Positions 1 through 31,479 of a DNA stretch of 31,479 bases are shown piece by piece. Both the position numbers and the translations under genes were made by a program. Every line of letters starts with the position of its first letter. Position 1 is the stretch's first letter. This DNA is from a virus (taxonomy: Duplodnaviria > Heunggongvirae > Uroviricota > Caudoviricetes), in IMG/VR virus record IMGVR_UViG_2547132280_000007. The stretch is one strand, 5' to 3'. The notes under the pieces were generated by a model that made no database searches, was not told the DNA's origin, and saw nothing but the letters and a program-made list of their open reading frames with translations.

Positions 1-642
1 TTAATCGGACGCTTTTAAATTTTTATTTTTCCCTGCAGAAAAATTAGCTTTCCCGCTGTTTTGCAACTCAACAAGAGGAGATAACCGTCGGTAAACAGCC
101 AAAAGTATCTTTAACTGAACCAGTTCATCTGCCCCCGATAGTTGAACCAAGTTTTTACGTTGTTCTTCACTAAGTGCCATCACAGATTCAAGTGATTTAA
201 CTGCGTCAGAAACAAGTTCAATCTCTTTAATTTGATTCTGTATACGCAGCTTCTCTGATTTCAACTTTGCCCATTCTCTTTGTCGATATGTACGCATCAC
301 CTGATCGTAAACTTTGTTGGCAGCCAGAATACTTCCACCAACAGCAGTAACTAACTCAGCAATCTGCCAAGAGATATCAATAAGAGCAGACAATTCAATA
401 AAGCCAGGAGAGGCATACTGAATTTTTTTCACTACAGGACGTAAATCTGGTGGAGTCGCACTGTAAGCCCCTCTAAAAAAGTTCACTACACTGTGCCCAC
501 CCTCCCAAGGCATTGTTGAATATCCTCTTGATCCTCCTTTTAGGCCATAAAAAAAACCATATAGCTGCAAATACTCTTTCGTTAAGACCGCGAAATCAGC
601 TAACTCCCAACGATTATCAAGCTCAATTATAACTTTTTCCAT
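1..642 (-). CDS. hypothetical protein, 213 aa, AT-rich; moron or flanking gene of unknown function
   Basis: Complete ORF (ATG at 642, stop at 1-3) with GGTGG about 6 nt upstream of the ATG. Roughly 38% GC against about 52% for the phage backbone. No motif recognised; C-terminal half looks coiled-coil-like (heptad-rich, K/E/Q/L). Confidence 0.5.
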   Translation of the reverse strand: MEKVIIELDNRWELADFAVLTKEYLQLYGFFYGLKGGSRGYSTMPWEGGHSVVNFFRGAYSATPPDLRPVVKKIQYASPGFIELSALIDISWQIAELVTAVGGSILAANKVYDQVMRTYRQREWAKLKSEKLRIQNQIKEIELVSDAVKSLESVMALSEEQRKNLVQLSGADELVQLKILLAVYRRLSPLVELQNSGKANFSAGKNKNLKASD

Positions 643-745
643 TTTCCACCAACCTGTCCAACTTTAAAAAGTTACTTTTAAGTATATGATAAACATAGTT
701 TATTAAACGTGATCCACTACTTTTAATGAAGAATATTCCCCAAAA

Positions 746-780
746 CAGAAAGCCCCTCGACTGAGGGGCTTTCTGTTTGT
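746..780 (-). terminator. intrinsic terminator hairpin downstream of ogr
   Basis: Perfect 13-bp inverted repeat cagaaagcccctc / gaggggctttctg with 4-nt loop gact (746-775). On the minus strand it is followed by TTTTG; on the plus strand by TTTGT, so it may act in both directions. Confidence 0.6.
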
Positions 781-1081: not shown

Positions 1082-2245
1082 TTAATCATCATCTTCTGTT
1101 TCGTACTCCACATCAGAAAGCCTGACCTCAAGCTCTAAGGACGTCGTGAAGCCGCTATTATTCAGAAAATGTGTCACCTTAGTGATTGTCCAGTCCTGCT
1201 CGTCTATGACGCGCTTAAAGCCTGACACTCTGACCGGTGTTTCCGTGTAAATATCAGCACGACCAGTGGCAAGGCTGATGGAGAACTCCGCGACGCCCCG
1301 TTGCAGTTTGTCCCACTTCGCCTGAGCGGCGCGCATGGCCTGCGCTTTCGTGGCATATACCGTGGTCAGGGCAAAAACGTTGTCAGCCTCACCTGCCATG
1401 TATTCACCTTCGCGCGCTTCCGGTACTTTTGACGCTTTCTTCTGCGTGACTGGTTTCGCTTTCGGGTGCTCCAGTGCGCGCAGGTGTTTCTCTTTCTTTT
1501 TGCGTTTCAGTTTTACCTTCTGCTTTTGTGGCTTCGGGTCTTTGGTGTGTAACCACTTTGCCGTTACGCCGGTATAGGCTCCACGGTCAGCAATCGCAAA
1601 ATGATGGCGGTCGCCGTCGCTGCGGGTGATGGTAATCTGCGGGATTTTTTTACCGCTGGCCGTCACCCCCTGCCCTGCTTTGAGAAACAGCAGTTTTCCC
1701 ATTTTTACCGACACCTCGCCGCCGTTGCGTTCAGCAAGACGGGTCAGGAATTTCACATCAGACTCCTGCGACTGGTCGATGTGCGGGATTTTAATTCCGG
1801 CCAGTGACGGAGCGACACTGGCTTCCAGCCTGTTACGGGAGGCTATCGCCTCAACAATCGCACCGAGCGTGGTGTCATGCCAGGAGCCTTCCCGGCGGGA
1901 ATTGAGCGTCCCACGAAAATCTGCACTCCGGGCACGGATGGTGACCACATCCGGTGCGCCCCGGTGTTCAACCTCATCAACGGTAAATTTCCCTTTGCAT
2001 ACCAGGGCAAAGCCTTTCCAGCCGATATACACCGTCAGGACAGCGCCACGAATCGGCAGCCCGACCTGCCCGTCGGCATCGTTCAGTTCAATATCAAGCT
2101 GGTCAGCCTCAAAGCCCCGGTTATCCGTCAGGGTCATGCTCATCAGACGGTCGCTGATATTGCCGGTAATATCCCTGCTGTCGAGCATCAGCATGTAATC
2201 CGGCGTCAGCGTACTGCCTGCATCAAATGTCAGCGCATCCAGCAT
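1082..2245 (-). CDS. D: tail protein gpD, 387 aa
   Basis: Position and length as in the P2 FI-FII-E-T-U-D operon; start overlaps the U stop. Confidence 0.85.
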   Translation of the reverse strand: MLDALTFDAGSTLTPDYMLMLDSRDITGNISDRLMSMTLTDNRGFEADQLDIELNDADGQVGLPIRGAVLTVYIGWKGFALVCKGKFTVDEVEHRGAPDVVTIRARSADFRGTLNSRREGSWHDTTLGAIVEAIASRNRLEASVAPSLAGIKIPHIDQSQESDVKFLTRLAERNGGEVSVKMGKLLFLKAGQGVTASGKKIPQITITRSDGDRHHFAIADRGAYTGVTAKWLHTKDPKPQKQKVKLKRKKKEKHLRALEHPKAKPVTQKKASKVPEAREGEYMAGEADNVFALTTVYATKAQAMRAAQAKWDKLQRGVAEFSISLATGRADIYTETPVRVSGFKRVIDEQDWTITKVTHFLNNSGFTTSLELEVRLSDVEYETEDDD

Positions 2246-2724
2246 TATCCCGCCCCCGTCATACCCGTGAATCTGGTCGCCATACTGCCAGCCTTACCGA
2301 TGAGCGATTCCGCCTGTTTACCGATATCGCCATAAAGCGCGGCCAGTGATTCGTCAACGCGGGTGAGCGACAGCGTAAAATCAATTTTTCGGGGTGTGCC
2401 GTCTGCAAAGAAAATACTCCCTGTTTCACTCACCTTGCTGATGACATACATGCCGTAAATCATGCCAGTGCCATCCAGCAACGGCCACGCCCGGCCTTCA
2501 TCTGCCATCAGCCTGAGCGTGGTCATCGTCAGCTTTCCGCCGGTCAGTTCGGGATAAAGCACACCGGCAAGCGTCATGTTTTCCTCACCCACACCGAGAA
2601 ACTGGTAGGCCTCCCGTTTACCGATACGGGAATTTGACGGCCAGCGATAATCTGATTCACGCTGCATGGTCTGGTGTGGCAGCGTCTGGCGCATAAAAAC
2701 AAACATACCTAACGCGAGCATCAT
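2245..2724 (-). CDS. U: tail protein gpU, 159 aa
   Basis: Synteny (between T and D) and size match P2 gpU. Confidence 0.85.
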   Translation of the reverse strand: MMLALGMFVFMRQTLPHQTMQRESDYRWPSNSRIGKREAYQFLGVGEENMTLAGVLYPELTGGKLTMTTLRLMADEGRAWPLLDGTGMIYGMYVISKVSETGSIFFADGTPRKIDFTLSLTRVDESLAALYGDIGKQAESLIGKAGSMATRFTGMTGAG

Positions 2725-2738
2725 TTTTCGTCACCTCC

Positions 2739-5186
2739 TTAACCGTCATGCATCATGCTGGCACGGGCGCGCGCACGTTTATCCCGCTCGTATTTTTCGA
2801 GCGCATCCTGTAACTGGCGGTCAAGCTGTGTCCCCGGCGCAGTACCACCCGTCAGGCTGATGTGATATTCGTTTTTACTCTGGTCCACATAAGAGCGGCC
2901 AGCCGGTGCCGTGACCGGCTGATAAGCCTGATAGCCTGCATAAGAGCTGGTCGCCGGAATATAACCACCGGTGCCATACGTGGCGGCATGAGTTCTGGCG
3001 GCGGTCTGGTCAAGTGTGTCTGACTCTTTGTTGATAACACCGAGTTTTTCCAGTACCCAGTCAATACCGCTGCGCAGTTTGTTGAACGCATTAAGCGGCA
3101 GCATCAGCGCGTCAGCCAGTGCCTGCCCGAACATGACGCCCGTGTCACGGCAACGGTTCAGGGTGTCCTGTGTGGCTTTAACCGGAGCAATCAGGTTTGT
3201 AAACCACTGCCACGCGGCCTGTAACTTTTCGCCCAGCCAGTCAAACACCGGCTTAAGTGGCGTGAACAGCTCCCCCACCGGCGCAAATGCCGCTTTCAGC
3301 CCTTCAACCACACCGCCAAAGAATGCGCTGACAGGCTCCCAGTATTTACGGATAAGCAACGCCCCGGCGACAATGGCAGCCACCACGGCCACAACCGGCC
3401 AGCTAATCGCACCGATGGCCGTCATAACGGCACTACCAACCGTCGTGAAGATTGCCCCCATTGCGCCTGCTGCCGCGATAATGGCATTGATGCCGGTGAT
3501 AACCGGCCAGGCTACAAGGCCAATGGCACCGATGATGCCAGTCAGCGCCAGTGCACCGCCGGCAATGAGGCCGATGGTTGACGCCAGTGATTTGTTTTTC
3601 TGTATCCAGCCGTCGAGTTTTAACACATACTTTGTGGCCGTCTGCGTGAGCTTACGCAGCGCGCCTTCCTGCTGGTCAAACAGGTCAGTCCCCACAGCCT
3701 CATAAGCGGACTGAAACTCCTTAAAGTCACCGCCGAGGTTATCCTGCATGATTTTAACCAGCTCTTCCGTTTTACTGTCCGAGGCTTTCAGCGTGGCGGT
3801 CAGCGTATCCAGTTTTCCGCTTGCTGCCGCTGCCAGTAAAACGTTCGCTGATTTCAGGGCTTCCTCACCAAAAATGGTTTTAAGGTATTCCCCCTTCTGA
3901 GACGTTCCCAGCTTGTGTTTATCAAAGCTGGCCTGAATCTCTTTCAGAATGGTGAACAACGGACGCATATTTCCCTTTTTGTCCGAGGTTTTAACGCCAA
4001 GCTCTTTGAGTGCATCCCATGCTTTTCCAGTCGGAGCCTGTAATCGGGTGACAACGGCACTACTACCCGTACCCGCCATTGACCCCCTGATGTTATTGTC
4101 ATGCAGCACACCGGTCATGGCTGCTGCCTGCTCAAGACTTACACCTGCCGTTCTTGCGACCGGACCGAGGTAAGTCAGTGCATCACTGAGTCCCTGAAAA
4201 TCAGCCGCCGACTTATTCATCGTTGCCGACAACACGTCGCCCACATGGCTGACATCATCATTTGACAGTTGAAAGGATGCCTTAGTCCCCAGCAACAGTT
4301 GCGCGTTTTCTTCCATCGACCGCTGATTCGCCAGCGCCATATTCAGCGTGACCGGCGTTGCCGCCTGAATGGCATCAACATCCCCACCCGCTTTCGCGAT
4401 GATTATCTGTGCACCGACCGCATCATCCGCCGAGGCGGCGGTATTGTCGCCGAGCTGGCGCGCCTGTTTGCGTAGTGCGGTCATTTCGGCGGAGTCTTTT
4501 GCCACTCCGAGCACGGCCTGCAATTCTGAGTTTTTCTGCGCAAACTCATAACCGGGCATCAGCAACTTAACTCCGGCCATCGTTCCCGCCGCCGCAATCC
4601 CCACACCGGCAGCGCCCACTGAGGCCATATTTCCGGCCAGTTCCTTTCCGGCCTGATAACGCTGTTTGACTGCGTTAAGTTTGGCCTGTTGCGCACTGAC
4701 ACGCGCCAGCGCGTCACGCTGACGGTTAAGTTGTGCGATGGTTTCACTGATACGGTTTTTCAGTCCCTGCTCATCATGTGCAAGATTGCGGGTATTAATT
4801 CCCACAGCGGCCAGTTCCCGCTGCTGGCGTTTAACGGAATCCGTCAGGCGGTTATATTTCGCCTGTAAGTCCTCCGCCGCACGCTTTGCGGATTCCAGCA
4901 CTTTCGCCTGAGCACGGGTCGGTCGTTCGGTGTTTTTAAACTGTGTGGCAAGGGCTTCGGCCTCCTGCCGTGCCTTTTCAAGTGCATGACCAGTTACGGC
5001 AAGCTGTGCGCTGGTCTTACGGAATCCCTCAATACGGGATACCTGACCGTTCAGCTCGCGCAGTGATTTTTGTGTTTCCCGGATATCCCCCGACAGCGAC
5101 TTGCTCGCTGTACGGATGGATTTAAACGGGCGGGATGCCTGGTCAACAGCCCTGAGCAATACCTGTAATTTTACATTGTTACTCAT
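2739..5186 (-). CDS. T: tail tape measure protein gpT, 815 aa
   Basis: 815 aa; coiled-coil N-terminal region, central hydrophobic Gly/Ala-rich segments; located directly downstream of E/E'. Confidence 0.9.
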   Translation of the reverse strand: MSNNVKLQVLLRAVDQASRPFKSIRTASKSLSGDIRETQKSLRELNGQVSRIEGFRKTSAQLAVTGHALEKARQEAEALATQFKNTERPTRAQAKVLESAKRAAEDLQAKYNRLTDSVKRQQRELAAVGINTRNLAHDEQGLKNRISETIAQLNRQRDALARVSAQQAKLNAVKQRYQAGKELAGNMASVGAAGVGIAAAGTMAGVKLLMPGYEFAQKNSELQAVLGVAKDSAEMTALRKQARQLGDNTAASADDAVGAQIIIAKAGGDVDAIQAATPVTLNMALANQRSMEENAQLLLGTKASFQLSNDDVSHVGDVLSATMNKSAADFQGLSDALTYLGPVARTAGVSLEQAAAMTGVLHDNNIRGSMAGTGSSAVVTRLQAPTGKAWDALKELGVKTSDKKGNMRPLFTILKEIQASFDKHKLGTSQKGEYLKTIFGEEALKSANVLLAAAASGKLDTLTATLKASDSKTEELVKIMQDNLGGDFKEFQSAYEAVGTDLFDQQEGALRKLTQTATKYVLKLDGWIQKNKSLASTIGLIAGGALALTGIIGAIGLVAWPVITGINAIIAAAGAMGAIFTTVGSAVMTAIGAISWPVVAVVAAIVAGALLIRKYWEPVSAFFGGVVEGLKAAFAPVGELFTPLKPVFDWLGEKLQAAWQWFTNLIAPVKATQDTLNRCRDTGVMFGQALADALMLPLNAFNKLRSGIDWVLEKLGVINKESDTLDQTAARTHAATYGTGGYIPATSSYAGYQAYQPVTAPAGRSYVDQSKNEYHISLTGGTAPGTQLDRQLQDALEKYERDKRARARASMMHDG

Positions 5187-5606
5187 TCGTGTTTCCGCTT
5201 CGCCGGAGCGCCTTTTCGCGCCATGTGATGAGTTCGGTCAGGCTCATGGGATACAGTTCTGATGGCGGCCAGTGAAATATCACTGCCACATCCGCCATCA
5301 GGTCATCGACCGAGAGATTTTTCGGAAACGTTACTGCACCGAGTTCGGCGACAAAAAACCGACCACCTTACCGGCCAGTGCCACAAGGTCAGGCAGTTCC
5401 AGCGCGGCGACCTCCTGCTCGGTCAGCATCGGTGCCGTCATGCGCGGCAGCACTTTAATCAGTGCATCGACTTCGGAGTTTGCGACCGCAGCCAGACTGA
5501 CACCGCGCAGCGTCCCGGCATTGGGTTTCATCAGCGTGACCTGTTCGATAACCTGCTCACCACGCTTGACCGGATTGTCCAGGGTAATGACATTTTCTTT
5601 GTTCAT
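5179..5606 (-). CDS. E+E': gpE+E' tail assembly chaperone extension made by -1 programmed frameshift
   Basis: Hand translation: after the heptamer T_TTT_TTG (5358..5352, minus strand) the -1 frame reads VAELGAVTFPKNLSVDDLMADVAVIFHWPPSELYPMSLTELITWREKALRRSGNTNE and stops at TAA 5181-5179, overlapping the T start (ATG at 5186). Confidence 0.75.
5331..5606 (-). CDS. E: tail assembly chaperone gpE, 91 aa
   Basis: 91-aa ORF between FII and T, ending ...GFLSPNSVQ; contains the slippery site near its 3' end. Confidence 0.85.
   Translation of the reverse strand: MNKENVITLDNPVKRGEQVIEQVTLMKPNAGTLRGVSLAAVANSEVDALIKVLPRMTAPMLTEQEVAALELPDLVALAGKVVGFLSPNSVQ
5352..5358 (-). other. -1 programmed ribosomal frameshift slippery heptamer T_TTT_TTG
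   Basis: Minus-strand sequence GGTTTTTTGTCG located 7 codons before the gpE stop; the -1 frame downstream is open for 57 codons. Confidence 0.75.
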
Positions 5607-5662
5607 GGTTTTCTCACTTCTGAATCAGGGTTAACCGGCCAGCCAGGCTGACCGGATGAAAA

Positions 5663-6181
5663 TCACAGGCCGATATTGCGGCGGTGTTGCTCCAGCCGGT
5701 CGACGCCGTTCACCTTCTCAATCATGTTGATGGTGTCAATTTCGACCAGCTCCTTACCGTCCATCGTCAGCCGGAAATAGGTGCAGACCACGGAGATTTT
5801 CGACTCAGTGTCTTCTCCCTGTTTACCCTCGCCGGTGTCGATTTCTTTCTGACGTCCACGCATGACCACTTCGACGGCCACCGTTTCGCCGGTATCGTCG
5901 CGCTGGTAAGAGCCTGCAAAACGAATCGGCACGGCATCCACACCGGTTGCGGCGTAAAGCTCCCAGATAACCGAATCCGGGAAGCCACCGAGCGACCACT
6001 CCATTGACAGCGCATCGTCATCAAGGCCGAGGTCTACCGGTGCGCTGCCGTTCATTCCCGCACCGCGATAGTTTTCGAGCTTACGGGTCAGTTTTGGTAG
6101 CGTGACGGACTTCGCGACGCCCTGATAGCTGTAGCCGTTCAGAAAGACGTTCATTAACTTGAGTTTGCGCGGCATTGCCAT
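5663..6181 (-). CDS. FII: tail tube protein gpFII, 172 aa
   Basis: Synteny and length as P2 FII. Confidence 0.9.
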   Translation of the reverse strand: MAMPRKLKLMNVFLNGYSYQGVAKSVTLPKLTRKLENYRGAGMNGSAPVDLGLDDDALSMEWSLGGFPDSVIWELYAATGVDAVPIRFAGSYQRDDTGETVAVEVVMRGRQKEIDTGEGKQGEDTESKISVVCTYFRLTMDGKELVEIDTINMIEKVNGVDRLEQHRRNIGL

Positions 6182-6193
6182 CGGTCAGGCTCC

Positions 6194-7384
6194 TTAATTG
6201 CTGTTAACCGAGGTGACCAGATTTGCCAGGTATTTATCGGTAATACGCTGGCGCAGGGTCAGGTTTTCAAGAGGAGGCACCGGGGTATAGTCGTAGTCGA
6301 TATACAGTTTTCCGGCCTTGAGGGTTTCCGCATCGTTGGATTCTTCGCTGAACCAGCAGGTCGCATCCACGATATAGCCGTTTGTTTTCAGCTCACGGAA
6401 TTTGGCATTGATGCCGTCAACGATGTCGCGAATCAGCGTTGCGGTGATGGGCTTATCCACAGCCCACATGTGCGCCTCAGCCATCGTGTCGGCCAGCACC
6501 TGCGCAGTGCGGGTGTAGTTTTCAAAGAGGAACAGCGGGTCATCAGAGCAGGTACGGTTACCCCAGAAGCGGAAACCGTCGCGGCGAATCAGCGTAGTGA
6601 CACCTGACTCGTTAAGAAGGTCAGCATCGGTGCCGGACTCCTGCAAATCCCAGAATACAGATGCGCTGATGCCGGTAACACCGTTTACCCCGACGTTGGA
6701 CAGCGTTTTATGCCAGCCCTGCTCCTGGTCGATTTTAGCGCGCAGCCCCAGTGCACGGGCGGTGGCATACGCGGTGGCGGTGGTACTGGTGACCGTATCC
6801 CATGCGAGGAAATCCGGCCAGATGACCATCAGCTCACGCTGGCTGAAATTCTGACGGTAGGCTTTCACCTCGGAAATGGTTTTACAGCCCCATGCGCTGA
6901 TATACCCGAAAGCGCGCAGCTTCTGACAGACTGATGCCAGTGCAACAGCCACCTCTTTGGTATCCAGTCCCGGCACGCCGAGAATACGCGGTTTTACACC
7001 GGTTACCGACTCCGCCGCCAGCAGGGCTTTCAGTCCGGTGTACTGACCGTTTTCGTCGGTGGTGCCGATGATATTGGAAACGGTCTGCGCGAGTTTCGTT
7101 TCTTCGTCTTCGCCGGTGCCGTCTTCCACACGCACGACAACGGTGACCGGTTTTGACTGGTCGGCGATGGCCTGTAACGATGCCGCCAGCGTGCCTTTTT
7201 TACCGGCCTTCGCAATTGCGCTCTGCACATTGGTAATCAGCACCGGTTTATTGAGGGGGAAGGTTTCCGCATCTGCATCGCTGGCCGTGCAGACCATGCC
7301 GACAATGGCCGTGGATACGGTGGAAATGACGCGGGTGCCGTCGTTAATCTCCAGCACCTGCACGCCGTGATGATAGTCACTCAT
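6194..7384 (-). CDS. FI: contractile tail sheath protein gpFI, 396 aa
   Basis: 396 aa, first gene of the FI-FII-E-T-U-D operon. Confidence 0.9.
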   Translation of the reverse strand: MSDYHHGVQVLEINDGTRVISTVSTAIVGMVCTASDADAETFPLNKPVLITNVQSAIAKAGKKGTLAASLQAIADQSKPVTVVVRVEDGTGEDEETKLAQTVSNIIGTTDENGQYTGLKALLAAESVTGVKPRILGVPGLDTKEVAVALASVCQKLRAFGYISAWGCKTISEVKAYRQNFSQRELMVIWPDFLAWDTVTSTTATAYATARALGLRAKIDQEQGWHKTLSNVGVNGVTGISASVFWDLQESGTDADLLNESGVTTLIRRDGFRFWGNRTCSDDPLFLFENYTRTAQVLADTMAEAHMWAVDKPITATLIRDIVDGINAKFRELKTNGYIVDATCWFSEESNDAETLKAGKLYIDYDYTPVPPLENLTLRQRITDKYLANLVTSVNSN

Positions 7385-7506: not shown

Positions 7507-7714
7507 TGTATTTATTGCGGTATTTCCGACCATTCAGGATTTGCAGGATCCACACGACCAGAAAGACAGCTACTGATTAATCAGGCCAATAAATACATGA
7601 ACAGTAAGCAATAGCCCGGCAGGTCTGAGGTACTGGCGCAATATAATTTGTGGCTGGATTACCTGTACGCACCGGAGCGGTCCGATACTTCCGGTACGTC
7701 AGATATTGAATGGC

Positions 7715-8125
7715 CTACGCCTCCTGCAGTTCAGGCCAGATGACATCCGGTGCGGTGCTGGTATCTGTTGCCGTCACAGCGTCGATATAATCCAGCACAA
7801 CGTTAAGTCGGGTAGTTTCTTCTTGCGTCAGTTTGCGCCCGGCCTGCAGCTTTAACTGAATCACGCTGATATTGGCCATTGCTGCGTCTATCAGCGACTG
7901 TTTTTTCTGTTCAGCGTCAGCTACCAGTTCATCATGAGAACGTTCCGGAGGGAGCGGCGCAGTAAATACCCCGTCTGAATACCCCCAGCCGATTCCGGGA
8001 TGCTCACTGATATCAGAAATATCAATGAGCTGCTGATTATCCGGCACTGTGAATTCAGCCTCGCCATCCCAGACAATGACATTCACAACCATCCCATTTT
8101 CAATAACTGCATATGACGCATTCAT
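7715..8125 (-). CDS. G: tail fibre assembly chaperone (gpG-position), 136 aa
   Basis: Start ATG overlaps the H stop (TAATG) with GAGGAG 9 nt upstream. Shorter than P2 gpG (about 175 aa), consistent with an exchanged host-range cassette. Confidence 0.75.
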   Translation of the reverse strand: MNASYAVIENGMVVNVIVWDGEAEFTVPDNQQLIDISDISEHPGIGWGYSDGVFTAPLPPERSHDELVADAEQKKQSLIDAAMANISVIQLKLQAGRKLTQEETTRLNVVLDYIDAVTATDTSTAPDVIWPELQEA

Positions 8126-22320: not shown

Positions 22321-22450
22321 TTGCGAATTCACGCACATCAACGCGAATCTTACATCATGAATAATTCATTTATGGCTACAGAATGAGTATATTGCATGTT
22401 ATGAAATAACTTTGTGCTCCTTCTCGTGGACATGTTCAACGGAGATCCAG

Positions 22451-23572
22451 ATGATTGCTGATTCAGAAATACTTTATGTTCCGCTAGATGATTTGGAACT
22501 TGACACAGAAAACCCAAGACTTCCTGAAGGCGTGTCTCGTGACCAATTGGGAATGATTAACTACATAGCAACCTCAACATCTATCGAAGACTTAATGAGT
22601 GCTATTGCGGAAAATGGTTTTTTCCCTGGAGAACCATTGATTGTCATTCCTGATAGTGGAGCGCCGGGGAAGTACATTGTAGTTGAAGGAAACCGTCGCC
22701 TATCCGCGGTCAAATTATTACGCGATCCGACACTATGTGAAAATCCAAGTGCTCGACTACGAGAAATTGCATCAAATGCAAAACATACGGTCGATCGTGT
22801 TCCTGTCATTGAGCGCCAAACAAGAGAAGAGATTCTTCCGTACCTTGGTTTCAGACATATTACTGGTGTCAAACAATGGGAACCCTTATCAAAAGCTCGA
22901 TATATTAAACAGCTTTTTGATTATACCAATGCAAATCTGGATCCAATGCTACGCTACTATGAGGTTGCCAGAGCTATTGGCAGTCGTAGGGATCATATCA
23001 AGCGTAACCTAGACGCTTTAGCGGTGTATGAAATCATTAAAAAAAATGATTTTTATGGTATTGAAAAGCTAGATGAAGAAACGATTAAATTTTCAGTATT
23101 ATCAACAGCACTTGCTGATGAGCGGTTAGGCCAGTTTGTCGGAGTTTCAATCGAAGACGATGGAGACACAATACCAAGTCATCCTATCATCAATTCTAAG
23201 AGTTTAAAGAACAAAGAAATAAAAGAACTAACTGAATGGTTATATAAAAAAGGCGAGGATAAAAAAACTCGTGTAGGAGAATCACGTAATTTAAGAGAAC
23301 TAGCTGCTGTTGTAAGTAGCCCTAAGGCATTGGAGCAATTCCGAATGGGGGCTCCACTCGCAGTTGCCTATCAATTGACATCTGATATTACTAAGGACTT
23401 TCTCCAGTTACTTTATCAAGTTGAAGCAGCTTTGATAGATGCAGCAGGCATGGTTGCCACGGTAGAGTATGATAGACAGGCCCATGAAGTAGCACGAAGA
23501 ATCAATAAACATATTAAGCTTATAGGTTCTGAAATAGCAGAGAAAAATAGCAGAGGTGATGATGACTTTTGA
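22451..23572 (+). CDS. ParB/Srx-like N-terminal domain protein, 373 aa (cargo gene 1)
   Basis: Start at ATG 22451 with GGAG 6-7 nt upstream. The N-terminal 150 aa follow the ParB N-domain pattern: LDDLELDTENPR, IVVEGNRRLSAVKLL (GxRR box), VPVIER. AT-rich. Confidence 0.7.
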   Translation: MIADSEILYVPLDDLELDTENPRLPEGVSRDQLGMINYIATSTSIEDLMSAIAENGFFPGEPLIVIPDSGAPGKYIVVEGNRRLSAVKLLRDPTLCENPSARLREIASNAKHTVDRVPVIERQTREEILPYLGFRHITGVKQWEPLSKARYIKQLFDYTNANLDPMLRYYEVARAIGSRRDHIKRNLDALAVYEIIKKNDFYGIEKLDEETIKFSVLSTALADERLGQFVGVSIEDDGDTIPSHPIINSKSLKNKEIKELTEWLYKKGEDKKTRVGESRNLRELAAVVSSPKALEQFRMGAPLAVAYQLTSDITKDFLQLLYQVEAALIDAAGMVATVEYDRQAHEVARRINKHIKLIGSEIAEKNSRGDDDF

Positions 23573-24551
23573 AGTAGGAGTTATGCATCCCAACTCTCCT
23601 CATTTGTTTGCAGATTTAGCCGAGTTACTCACGGTAATTAATTATACCGGACGTAACTCACTACATAAAAATGATTTAGATTCAGTAAGAAAATTCGGCA
23701 TAACAAGCGTTGAAGAAATTGATGAAGAATGTAATTCTGAAGAAGAAATTAATGGAGACGCTGAGAGAAATGATCGTTTTGAAGAGCAACTCGAAGATGT
23801 TTGGACACAACTCGAATATAGAGAAAGTGCTCTTGGAAAAATATATCCATTTATAATTTCAGGTGATGAGATAATTATTAAAGAAAATCTAAACCAACAA
23901 CAACGAATATATGTTTTTCTTCTTTGCTGCTCTAGACTTAGATCCTTTAAGTCGATTAAAGGAGCAGCACAACGTTGGGCAAAGAGCTTTGCCAGAGTAT
24001 GTAAAGTAGCAATGATTTCTCTCTTACCTGCACATGGCACCGTAAGAATTTTTGATGCTAACTCCGATGATAGGCAAAATTATTATGGAACAAATCTTCG
24101 GACAGCTCTACAAACTTTAGGAAAAGATCTTGGAGTTTGTAGTTTAAACACAAGGGAAATAAATAGAGCTCCCACATCTGGTGATGCCGGGTTTGACCTA
24201 ATTGCTACAGTGGAATTTCCTGATGGTCAAACTAGCAACTATGGAATTCTTGGTCAATGTGGTGCACAAGAAACAGGGTGGCCAAGCAAAACATTAGAGG
24301 CTAACGTGTTAAAACTGACCACCTATTTCCAAATTGCGTTCCAGCATCCATCAACAATGTTCACGCCTGTTTTCTATCGGGAAGCAAATGGCGAATGGGT
24401 AAGCACACACGCAACCGCTGGGGTATTATTATTAGATAGGTTGAGAATCATATATCTACTTGATAAGGCAAACCAATGGGAAGCGATAACTACCTCTGAT
24501 TGGTTTCGCGAATTTGAGGAAGAGCTTTATACATTAAATCCAGAGCCTTAA
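23562..24551 (+). CDS. hypothetical protein, about 329 aa, translationally coupled to gene 1 (cargo gene 2); possible nuclease or effector
   Basis: Overlaps the gene 1 stop by 11 nt. Start is uncertain (GTG 23556, ATG 23559/23562 or ATG 23583); AGAGG lies 5 nt before ATG 23562. No confident motif seen. Confidence 0.6.
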   Translation: MTFEVGVMHPNSPHLFADLAELLTVINYTGRNSLHKNDLDSVRKFGITSVEEIDEECNSEEEINGDAERNDRFEEQLEDVWTQLEYRESALGKIYPFIISGDEIIIKENLNQQQRIYVFLLCCSRLRSFKSIKGAAQRWAKSFARVCKVAMISLLPAHGTVRIFDANSDDRQNYYGTNLRTALQTLGKDLGVCSLNTREINRAPTSGDAGFDLIATVEFPDGQTSNYGILGQCGAQETGWPSKTLEANVLKLTTYFQIAFQHPSTMFTPVFYREANGEWVSTHATAGVLLLDRLRIIYLLDKANQWEAITTSDWFREFEEELYTLNPEP

Positions 24552-24558
24552 TAGCTTA

Positions 24559-25503
24559 TCAATCCCATAATTCTATTGGCAATGCCTTCGTTACAGCTTC
24601 AAAAAGCGGCGGAGGCACTGCATTACCAACCACCGTGTATTTCATGCCAAGACTTGCAGCATTTGTTTCTGGAAACACTAGATCCTCAAACCCTTGTAAT
24701 AGTGCTGCCTCTCGAAAACTGAATCTGCGAGCTCTCCGATCCTCAACAAATCTCCATTCATCAGTTCTTACTTTCTCCATCGGAGGACTGACAGGATGCA
24801 ACGGCATATGCCTTGCATTAGCAACTATTGTCTTTGAAATTTGATCCCAATCCTGGCGACGATTGCGAGACATATAATACCAATGGAATCCCATATCATA
24901 AAATTCACCTTCTGGCCATTCAGGTAAATGCCCTATAGCATCTTTAATAGTAACATAGTTGACGCCAGTTGCTGGCCCATGAGTTGGCTGAGGGAACTCG
25001 TACTTAACTTTGAAATCATTACGGATTCCTACGATAAATATTCTTTTTCTTTCCTGCGCTACTCCATATTCAGCCGCATTTAAAACTTTTGCGGAAACAG
25101 TATAACCTGCTTCAGTAAAAACCCTGATCTGGTCAGATAACAAATGCTCAAAATTTTTTCTAACCATACCAGACACGTTTTCTACTATAAAAGCTTTAGG
25201 CTTTATATTGTTTAAAGCTCTAGCAAACTCTAAATAAAGAGTATTAATTTTTCGATCGGCTTTACGCGCACCACCCTGGCTGAATCCCTGACATGGATAA
25301 CAACCTACCAGCAAATCAGATTTAGGAAAAGTAGTTACATCAGCAATATTGCCTAATATGTAATCAGTTTCTGGATGATTGGCAATATAAACATCGCGCG
25401 CATACGGCAAGATATCGTTGGCCATAAGCACATCAAAGCCGGCTCTCAAAACCCCCGCATCGGAACCACCGCATCCAGAAAAAAGTGAAACTACTGTTGG
25501 CAT
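24559..25503 (-). CDS. DNA (cytosine-5)-methyltransferase, 314 aa
   Basis: C5-MTase motifs in canonical order: I SLFSGCGG, IV GCYPCQGFS (catalytic Pro-Cys), VI FIVENV, VIII QERKRIFIVG, X VVGNAVPP. Strong SD (GGAGGGGATA) before the ATG. Confidence 0.85.
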   Translation of the reverse strand: MPTVVSLFSGCGGSDAGVLRAGFDVLMANDILPYARDVYIANHPETDYILGNIADVTTFPKSDLLVGCYPCQGFSQGGARKADRKINTLYLEFARALNNIKPKAFIVENVSGMVRKNFEHLLSDQIRVFTEAGYTVSAKVLNAAEYGVAQERKRIFIVGIRNDFKVKYEFPQPTHGPATGVNYVTIKDAIGHLPEWPEGEFYDMGFHWYYMSRNRRQDWDQISKTIVANARHMPLHPVSPPMEKVRTDEWRFVEDRRARRFSFREAALLQGFEDLVFPETNAASLGMKYTVVGNAVPPPLFEAVTKALPIELWD

Positions 25504-28772: not shown

Positions 28773-28993
28773 AGCACCTCCCCGCGAGACAATCCGATAT
28801 TGTGAAATTTTTCCGACTCCTGACTGAGCAGCTCGACTATCTCCACGCGGGATAACTCCGCCTTTGTGATGTGGCGAATCATGGCGTCAAGATGAGAAGA
28901 AAAGCGCGTCGCTGCATCGGCCTGTGCTTCGGTTCTGGCCTGTTGCAGCAGTAATGCGTATTTACCGCACTGATTTTCAGAAACTGTATGCAT
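28769..28993 (-). CDS. small early protein, 74 aa (P2 orf80-position)
   Basis: Synteny immediately downstream of B. Confidence 0.55.
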
Positions 28994-30498: not shown

Positions 30499-31479
30499 AT
30501 GGCAATTAAGAAGCTCGATGATGGTCGCTATGAAGTGGACATTAGACCTCGCGGTCGCGACGGAAAACGCATCCGCAGGAAATTCGAAAGAAAAGCTGAA
30601 GCACTAGCATTTGAGCGATACACAATCGCCAATGCCAGTCAGAAAGAATGGGGAGGCCAGCGAGCAGACCGCCGAACTTTGAGTGAGTTGCTGGACATCT
30701 GGTGGAAATATCACGGGCAAAACCACGAGCATGGAACAAAAGAGTTTAATCATCTACTCAAAACCATCAGCGGCATAGGTGATATACCAGTGAGCCGGAT
30801 GAGCAAAAGGGCTTTGATGGATTATCGTTCCATGCGACTACGTGATGGTATCAGTGCCGCAACGATAAACCGTGACATGTACCGATTATCCGGCATGTTC
30901 ACAAAATTAATTCAATTGGATGAATTTTCCGGGCAACACCCAATTCACGGACTGCCGCCACTGGCGGAGGCCAACCCTGAAATGACGTTCCTGGAAAAAG
31001 CAGAAATCGCAAAACTGTTAAATGTTTTGGCTGGTGATGACTTACTTGTCGCGCTTTTATGTCTGAGCACTGGAGGAAGATGGACGGAAGTTGCCACGCT
31101 AAAACCAGCACAGATTACAAATTGCAGGGTTACCTTCCTGAAAACCAAAAACGGTAAAAAGCGAACCGTGCCGATTTCTGAGGAACTGGAGAAAAAAGTT
31201 AAAGAGGAGGCCAGCGCCAAATTATTCAAAGTTGATTATGAGAAATTTTGCGGGATTTTACGCAGAGTGAAACCTGATATACCACCCAATCAGGCAACCC
31301 ACATCCTGCGGCATACATTCGCAAGCCATTTCATGATGAATGGGGGCAATATAATCGCACTGCAACAGATTCTGGGACATGCGAGCATTCAGCAGACGAT
31401 GGCCTATGCGCACCTTGCGCCTGACTACCTGCAAAATGCCGTCGCTCTGAATCCACTAAAAGGCGGAGTGACGTTATAA
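30499..31479 (+). CDS. int: tyrosine integrase, 326 aa
   Basis: Start MAIKKLDDGRYEVDIRP... (GGAGGG 7 nt upstream); C-terminal catalytic motifs HILRHTFASHF and GHASIQQTMAYAHL (Tyr). The stop is the last codon of the window. Confidence 0.9.
   Translation: MAIKKLDDGRYEVDIRPRGRDGKRIRRKFERKAEALAFERYTIANASQKEWGGQRADRRTLSELLDIWWKYHGQNHEHGTKEFNHLLKTISGIGDIPVSRMSKRALMDYRSMRLRDGISAATINRDMYRLSGMFTKLIQLDEFSGQHPIHGLPPLAEANPEMTFLEKAEIAKLLNVLAGDDLLVALLCLSTGGRWTEVATLKPAQITNCRVTFLKTKNGKKRTVPISEELEKKVKEEASAKLFKVDYEKFCGILRRVKPDIPPNQATHILRHTFASHFMMNGGNIIALQQILGHASIQQTMAYAHLAPDYLQNAVALNPLKGGVTL

Follow-up and report, generated by a model that had tools for sequence, protein, structure and literature searches.

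A stand-alone homologue of the PD-T4-10B C-terminal domain in a single-gene moron of a P2-like Escherichia coli prophage

The 31,479-nt stretch of viral DNA analysed here (IMG/VR record IMGVR_UViG_2547132280_000007, hereafter the window) is 100% identical to a stretch of Escherichia coli 504239 (NZ_CP025859.1) between fieF and cpxP. It opens with a gene for a 213-aa protein that is the sole gene of a 760-bp moron, located between the ogr terminator and the integrase (Int) P-arm of a P2-like prophage inserted at the cpxP terminator. Profile matches and alignments show that the product belongs to the PD-T4-10B family as a naturally short form made up of the conserved C-terminal domain only. A functional selection in E. 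coli ECOR65 uncovered PD-T4-10, which comprises two overlapping ORFs, with accessions RCO36089.1 for A and RCO36088.1 for B. Passages of its description report that B is toxic and A neutralises B, that A could not be deleted, that deletion of B abolishes T4 resistance, and that the system acts by abortive infection against T-even phages (Vassallo et al. 2022, Nat Microbiol; PMC9519451). For the solo gene described here, we give roughly even chances to a role as a prophage defence or superinfection-exclusion gene that would be antitoxin-independent and would act by abortive infection. Coordinates refer to the window, and negative values or values above 31479 lie outside it and were read from the E. 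coli genome. The features needed below are as follows.

1-642, minus strand: coding sequence of the 213-aa protein (from the ORF list; RefSeq WP_000416606.1, annotated 'hypothetical protein'), a stand-alone homologue of the PD-T4-10B C-terminal domain
643-748, minus strand: AT-rich (29% GC) upstream part of the moron, presumed from sequence and GC content to hold the promoter and 5' untranslated region
749-780, minus strand: rho-independent terminator of the ogr transcript and F operon, and right-hand boundary of the insertion; identical to a feature that the P2 record labels as this terminator (AF063097, 24265-24288)
783-1001, minus strand: ogr, late-gene activator and last core gene ahead of the moron (annotated ogrK in NZ_CP025859.1)
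1082-2245, minus strand: gene D, upstream of the 213-aa ORF on the same strand
30499-31479, plus strand: integrase, at the opposite prophage end (annotated phage integrase)

The ORF lies in a 760-bp moron inside the attachment sites

P2 has no gene between ogr and the attachment site, as a first-pass annotation of the window had stated: the Int P-arm, an IHF site and the attP core follow the P2 ogr terminator within 5-70 bp. The 213-aa ORF, which that annotation took to be either a moron or the first flanking gene, is complete (ATG at 642-640, TAA at 3-1, minus strand). The attachment (att) core is the cpxP terminator, an exact direct repeat of 47 bp, GATAAAAAAAACCCCCACATCATGTGGGGGAAGACAGGGATGGTGTC, present at -128..-82 and, beyond int, at 31596..31642 (copies elsewhere numbered L001 8872-8918, with L002 in reverse complement). 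The left core lies 81-82 bp past the stop codon of the ORF. In the stretch from this stop codon to the left core, GTCCACA occurs in tandem at -32 and -21, 11 bp apart, and the other arm carries a second tandem at +17 and +28 past the window end, just beyond the int stop codon; on both arms these motifs look like Int arm-binding sites. Because the att repeats and Int arm motifs enclose both the ORF and int, the ORF is placed within the integrated element. The mapping of the att sites that the first-pass annotation called for thus puts the gene within the 47-bp repeats. The only support for the ORF being the first host gene is its terminal position in the window, and this reading has next to no probability. 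It is refuted by the location of the ORF inside the att repeats, by the Int arm motifs between ORF and core, and by fieF being the first host gene past the prophage end. In addition, ~500 genomes whose prophage has this att arm do not contain the ORF. The two signs of a host gene named in the first pass, occurrence in prophage-free strains and a match to a conserved host gene, were both absent.

The distribution of the ORF at this site was followed in 5426 complete E. coli genomes with a 201-bp probe that covers the att arm and the 3' end of the ORF. The probe matches 664 genomes; in 160 of these the match extends into the ORF, and in the rest it ends after the arm. The ORF itself is present in 163 genomes (~3%) with 167 occurrences, all of them chromosomal, and in 160 of these genomes it adjoins the phage arm. 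For 161 of the 163, the best match has an identity of at least 99%, a near-uniformity that suggests a single acquisition followed by spread with the prophage lineage. Three ORF-less prophages that were inspected (L014-L016) share the fieF-proximal arm, from which ogr is separated by 41 bp, and are otherwise collinear with the window at this end. By alignment with these, the insertion corresponds to window -11..748 (L001 8989..9748), in which 760 bp stand in place of 9 bp (ACCATAAAT), and homology to the moron-less prophages resumes at the ogr terminator.

The base composition is foreign to the phage backbone, in agreement with the first-pass description. The whole insertion has a GC content of 38.2% relative to 52.4% for the rest of the window, with 39.7% in the ORF and 29.2% in the 106 bp upstream of it (643-748). 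The sole other stretch of the window that is equally AT-rich is the P2 cargo hotspot at ~22.3-25.3 kb. Based on presence and absence in collinear phages, the precise junction and this foreign composition, the element is a moron. The Shine-Dalgarno-like sequence and AT-rich upstream region noted in the first pass are also present, the former as GGTGG at 650-646, 3 nt ahead of the ATG.

Several sequence features are observed at the left boundary. A perfect inverted repeat with an 8-bp stem, AGCGTCCG-TTTAAT-CGGACGCT, straddles the ORF stop codon (window 1-13 plus the 9 preceding bases; L001 8992-9013), just within the left boundary of the insertion. On the plus strand it is followed by a T-rich run that gives it a terminator-like look, and it may mark an insertion joint or stop transcripts that enter from the host side. 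Since the att core contains the cpxP terminator, integration leaves one copy that terminates cpxP and a second copy ~100 bp downstream of the 213-aa ORF. This second (attR) copy, a terminator-like hairpin followed by a T-run, may serve as terminator for the ORF. A search with Rfam for an RNA antitoxin or riboswitch yielded no family above threshold; its sub-threshold hits all fell on the att and terminator hairpins.

The product is a short form of the PD-T4-10B family

Scans of the 213-aa protein against Pfam, PHROGs and NCBIfam gave no significant match, and no DUF6575 was found by Pfam. For these databases the earlier statement that the protein has no recognisable motif stands; it fails for PADLOC. 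The PADLOC profile PDLC04024 (PD-T4-10_B) matches with E = 1.3e-34, aligning residues 3-201 to profile positions 139-346 of 353, which is only the C-terminal two thirds of the profile, yet essentially the whole protein. Two further PD-T4-10_B profiles, PDLC04025 (E = 7e-23, positions 28-231 of 244) and PDLC04026 (E = 3e-19), also match. As PADLOC already holds a B profile of 244 positions, the short relatives have not gone unseen.

A family profile searched against 1.84 billion cluster representatives returned 785 matches. These relatives fall in two architectures: a short one of ~205-240 aa with the domain alone, and a long one of ~320-400 aa that ends in the domain. Long forms match the PADLOC PD-T4-10_B profile over its whole length. 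Ten of them were tested, and in 7 the N-terminal extension of ~130 residues corresponds to the N-terminal part of Pfam DUF6575 (PF20215). In one long form, EAD1 and TRADD-like-N adaptor domains take the place of DUF6575, and such adaptors usually carry effector domains. In a comparison of 247 aligned domains, 204 of them short forms, the nearest neighbour has the same architecture for 226 proteins, and architecture thus tracks sequence clusters. Judged by these comparisons, the short form is a widespread family in its own right, commoner than the long form in the retrieved set.

The canonical PD-T4-10B architecture, a DUF6575-like region of ~130 aa fused to the C domain (~340-360 aa in all), is not found in the protein of the window, which has 213 aa and begins at the C domain. 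It could be read as a decayed, 5'-truncated and non-functional remnant of a two-gene PD-T4-10 locus, in keeping with the absence of A and a match confined to the C-terminal two thirds of the main B profile. This is very improbable. Homologues of 72-77% identity share the start codon and N-terminus (MEKVII...), and every one of them has a conserved upstream region of its own; short-form representatives number 204; the 244-position PADLOC profile is matched over positions 28-231; and purifying selection is strong. The conserved N-terminus, the number of short forms and the selection together effectively refute the pseudogene reading. The 213-aa protein is therefore a true short-form protein rather than a truncated PD-T4-10B. 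A long-form search for the ECOR65 PD-T4-10B gave 7 hits, none from E. coli, and a literature search for WP_000416606.1 returned no papers. Database entries of 161 or 170 aa in the same cluster are probably alternative start calls or variants.

Conservation, selection and predicted structure

Relative to the nearest relatives, pS is 0.72-0.9 (synonymous sites saturated) and pN is 0.12-0.27, with a dN/dS of ~0.06 where computable, values that point to strong purifying selection on the gene. The N-terminus (MEKVII...) and parts of the upstream region are conserved in homologues of 60-77% identity. Given this selection and the 785 cluster representatives that match the profile, the ORF is a real gene and no chance reading frame.

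Residues W12, Y24, Y28, G48, G49, S51, Y76, A77, S78, P79, G80, K178, R185 and R186 are invariant in the family alignment. The residues that define the domain (D9, W12, Y28, P45, W46, G48, G49, S51, F55, Y76, S78, P79, G80, Y112, K178, R185 and R186) have the same conservation in short and long forms, and all of them are present in the 213-aa protein. The conserved set includes aromatic residues, two Gly/Ser-rich turns and a Lys...Arg-Arg helix, and to us resembles a binding pocket more than the active site of a hydrolase. The family profile had no match among sequences in the PDB, and no solved structure was found. An AlphaFold2 model built from a 29-sequence alignment has a mean pLDDT of 85 and contains the following predicted elements.

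Residues 2-8: strand
Residues 14-36 and 49-61: helices
Residues 70-86: beta-hairpin with the YASPG turn
Residues 88-103: helix
Residues 105-154: 50-residue helix
Residues 159-168 and 173-195: helices

The coiled-coil C-terminus predicted in the first pass is loosely supported by this model, in which the 50-residue helix is followed by two more helices. The helix after the hairpin (~88-110) is the most hydrophobic segment in almost all members; its mean Kyte-Doolittle value over 19 residues is 1.6 or higher in 66% of members, with a maximum of 2.6. In the region of residues 37-40, the E. coli protein is without ~14 residues that are present in its closest relatives (73-77% identity; alignment A1 columns 79-92). 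This gap is in a variable loop between helix 1 and the PW-GG-S motif, where the confidence of the AlphaFold2 model is lowest (pLDDT 63-73).

A truncated homologue of a defence protein that is encoded by a phage, with a long helix suited to oligomerisation, could also act as an anti-defence decoy: the free C domain would co-assemble with and poison the PD-T4-10B of the host or of a rival element, and so shield the P2-like phage. We consider this improbable. The core residues are conserved as in the long forms, the identity to long-form C domains is only 31-38%, and the short form outnumbers the long in the retrieved set and is common in non-phage cassettes.

Antitoxin A accompanies the N-terminal domain

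In all long-form loci inspected (L017-L020, L053, L054 and L074), a gene for a protein of ~128-148 aa abuts or overlaps B on its upstream side. This gene matches the A-family model or PADLOC PD-T4-10_A in five distinct loci (L017, L018, L019, L053 and L054), with E = 1.2e-18 for that of L019. In L074, the abutting 128-aa upstream ORF misses the A model (E = 1e-3) and aligns to A proteins at only 17% identity. The A-type proteins of L017, L018, L019, L053, L054 and L074 share invariant Cys18, Arg34, Phe46, Cys66, Ser72, Gly113 and His124 (L019 numbering) and, in most, a GHFD motif; they match no Pfam family. Their Cys/Cys/His pattern could be a putative metal-binding site.

No such partner was found for the gene described here. 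The region upstream of the ORF, where A would be expected, consists of 106 AT-rich, non-coding base pairs followed by the ogr terminator. Six-frame HMM searches of the whole window returned only noise for the A family (E at least 7) and nothing for the N domain. The 760-bp insertion contains no second ORF with a family match, and the adjacent antitoxin of a type II toxin-antitoxin pair is lacking. In the same kind of search, ~50 short-form loci contained neither A nor the N domain, except for a DUF6575 gene on the opposite strand in one locus. Across these loci, then, antitoxin A tracks the N domain and not the C domain.

The exceptional locus is a prophage contig (L069, IMGVR_UViG_2529292737_000003, positions 1758-6743) in which the DUF6575 gene, a short form and, 79 bp downstream of the latter, a reverse-transcriptase gene are found within 5 kb; the trio looks like a small defence island. 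Its full-length DUF6575 protein has 437 aa and a different C-terminus, and an abutting upstream gene encodes a 154-aa protein with weak similarity to PD-T4-10A (hhalign probability 73%, E = 3e-5). This arrangement suggests that the partner of A is the DUF6575 N domain, irrespective of which C-terminal domain follows it.

Relatives and their neighbours in other genomes

Homologues of the 213-aa protein recur at the ends of related phage operons. In a Kosakonia prophage, a 77%-identical homologue occupies the same slot in the order gpD, ogr and the gene, followed by a sulfatase gene that was taken as a host gene. A 72%-identical homologue is found at the end of the late operon in an IMG/VR contig, in the order gpD and the gene, and an HP1/P2-like contig carries a homologue at its end, downstream of tail-fibre genes. 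In Vibrio, a homologue with 47% identity makes up an integron cassette by itself, between VCR-type repeats of 136 nt in an array of 11 repeats, which shows that the gene can travel as a self-contained solo module. The cassette may also extend to Salmonella. The record of Salmonella phage STYP1 (L012, KX833211.1), presented as a complete genome, ends at 28946, exactly where the 213-aa ORF would begin, with 97% identity to the upstream region of the moron (against window 643-780); the record is probably cut inside the cassette. Partial proteins from Salmonella enterica share the 90% cluster of the 213-aa protein. Together, these two observations make it probable that the cassette occurs in Salmonella prophages too.

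The genes next to short forms include several with links to defence. In three distinct loci of Pseudomonas prophages, a DUF4917/SIR2-like protein (PADLOC candidate PDC-S21) is encoded 26-27 bp downstream of the short form. Other direct downstream neighbours are a TIR-domain protein at 25 bp, a PRTase-CE protein at 33 bp and a reverse transcriptase at 79 bp. Neighbour clustering over 54 loci revealed no recurrent partner across the family, and recovered only P2 gpD, ogr and the Pseudomonas DUF4917 gene.

These neighbours bear on the chief alternative to the favoured role in defence or exclusion, in which the domain has a sensor or adaptor role and the toxicity of PD-T4-10B resides in the DUF6575-like N domain, the part guarded by A. 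Short forms would then work with a separate effector (SIR2, TIR or PRTase), and the protein of this prophage would be an orphan or the partner of an effector elsewhere in the host. Such a division of labour is consistent with the co-occurrence of A with N-domain proteins only, including a DUF6575 protein that has another C-terminus and a weakly A-like gene abutting it (hhalign 73%, E = 3e-5). It is also consistent with the presence, in three lineages, of genes for SIR2-like, TIR and PRTase-CE proteins 25-33 bp downstream of short forms, with conserved residues that resemble a binding pocket and not a catalytic site, and with the tolerance of solo copies in integron cassettes. We nonetheless hold it to be rather unlikely. 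Most short-form loci, including that of the window, where the att site comes directly after the ORF, have no recurrent partner; PADLOC lists PDC-S21 as a single-gene candidate; and the EAD1/TRADD-N fusion puts the domain where effectors normally stand. This fusion and the lack of a partner in the present prophage fit an effector.

Possible function in the lysogen

The first-pass annotation had put the ORF forward as a candidate for abortive infection or superinfection exclusion. This guess gains support from homology, because the protein is a full-length homologue of the C domain of PD-T4-10B, a validated abortive-infection toxin. We infer that the function would be expressed from the lysogen and exerted without an antitoxin. 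In the mechanism proposed, the protein would rest as a soluble alpha/beta-plus-helical fold and, on infection, would oligomerise via the long helix 105-154. The conserved hydrophobic helix (~88-110) would then be exposed to or inserted in the inner membrane; alternatively, a phosphate-bearing ligand might be bound via the Gly/Ser/aromatic/Lys-Arg-Arg pocket. Either event would halt the infected cell, so that the infection is aborted. This mechanism is weakly supported and is the least certain step of the proposal.

A number of points weigh against a defence or exclusion role. With respect to the protein, no invariant Asp, Glu, His or Cys suggestive of catalysis is present, and the hydrophobic helix is borderline in the E. 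coli member itself (Kyte-Doolittle 1.35). Should the toxicity of PD-T4-10B reside in the C domain, there is no explanation for how a solo copy is tolerated; should it not, the solo protein may be without an effector. With respect to context, neighbouring defence genes could merely reflect shared cargo hotspots, the rules of PADLOC and DefenseFinder would call no system here because A is missing, and the literature search found no paper that discusses or tests short relatives of PD-T4-10B. With respect to expression, a -10-like hexamer, TATACT, is located at 686-681, and a sigma-70 scan upstream of the ORF gave no strong promoter match, for which reason expression in the lysogen is presumed. 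Late read-through past the ogr terminator into the ORF is possible.

Such read-through is central to a further reading, in which the gene is non-defence cargo or an accessory of the phage life cycle, transcribed mainly from the F/ogr late operon and of use in lytic growth or lysogenic conversion. The ORF is on the same strand as ogr and directly downstream of it, with only the terminator between them, and no strong promoter was detected. We judge this reading unlikely, since ~500 prophages with the same att arm are without the ORF, the three inspected being otherwise collinear here, and since the gene also occurs outside phages, in integron cassettes, and is homologous to a validated defence toxin.

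Comparison with PD-T4-10 and with P2 cargo

The whole 213-aa protein is homologous to the C-terminal ~210 aa of PD-T4-10B, and the core PW-GG-S-VNF, Y-SPG and K...RR motifs are common to both. In contrast to PD-T4-10, the gene stands alone at the ogr-att junction, with neither a PD-T4-10A gene nor the DUF6575-like N-terminal domain that is fused to the C domain in canonical PD-T4-10B. Because the A gene and the full-length B architecture are both missing, the protein should not be filed as PD-T4-10. The Vibrio homologue resembles the cassettes of sedentary chromosomal integrons, being a single gene with VCR-type repeats, whereas the vehicle here is a prophage moron and not an attC cassette.

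PD-T4-10 is itself listed among systems from P2 hotspots in passages of a preprint (Egorov and Atkinson 2024, bioRxiv 10.1101/2024.10.15.618418). The classical P2 hotspots, as these passages and those of PMC9519451 have them, are gpA-gpQ (old, tin) and Z/fun. The same preprint refers to a third hotspot 'between a tail protein and CI', and excerpts of PMC13586616 to cargo regions at int-att and 'downstream of GpL'. Like the morons and defence cargo of P2 (old, tin and Z/fun; Rousset 2022, PMC9122126, in the portions cited), the element is an AT-rich foreign insert between conserved P2 genes. As with other P2 defence cargo, only some of the otherwise collinear prophages carry it, and it has homology to a defence gene. 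In contrast to the classical cargo, it is in neither gpA-gpQ nor Z/fun, but between the ogr terminator and the Int P-arm. This slot falls in the loosely defined third-hotspot and 'downstream of GpL' regions, and a specific description of it was not found in the portions of the P2-hotspot literature cited here. A defence-like moron in a P2 prophage is in itself expected; the solo short form of PD-T4-10B appears to be a variant not previously discussed.

Other cargo of the prophage

The classical P2 hotspot #1 of this prophage is also occupied, at window 22412-25503, by cargo of 35-41% GC. A 386-aa protein encoded there matches PADLOC PD-Lambda-5_A with E = 6.6e-29; of the 440 positions in this profile, the match covers no more than the first ~277. 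An overlapping ORF for 331 aa (23556-24551) has no PADLOC match, and a convergent gene (24559-25503, minus strand) encodes a C5 DNA cytosine methyltransferase that is DruM2/MTase_II-like (E = 1e-113). At window 7531-8065 (L001 16531-17065), two partial tail-fibre-assembly pseudogenes annotated by RefSeq lie in opposite orientations and adjoin the tail-fibre gene; the pair looks like a remnant of an invertible tail-fibre segment.

Implications

PD-T4-10 is an experimentally found E. coli defence system without a known mechanism, and in the retrieved set the C-terminal domain of its 'toxin' circulates far more as a solo gene than in the A plus B pair. A solo domain without antitoxin poses the question of which half of PD-T4-10B is toxic and which half is neutralised by A. 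The gene also means that ~3% of complete E. coli genomes (163 of 5426) carry a defence candidate that rule-based annotation can be expected to overlook, as the system appears incomplete, and it defines precisely a P2-like cargo slot, from the ogr terminator to the Int P-arm, outside the two classical hotspots. We tentatively suggest, as a possible but doubtful extension, that the ~210-aa domain is a complete, antitoxin-independent single-gene anti-phage module, latent and either membrane-active or ligand-sensing, that has spread via the ends of P2-like prophages and via integron cassettes. PD-T4-10 would then be this module with add-on regulation in the form of the N domain and A. If true, this would change the understanding of PD-T4-10 and would define a new single-gene defence family.

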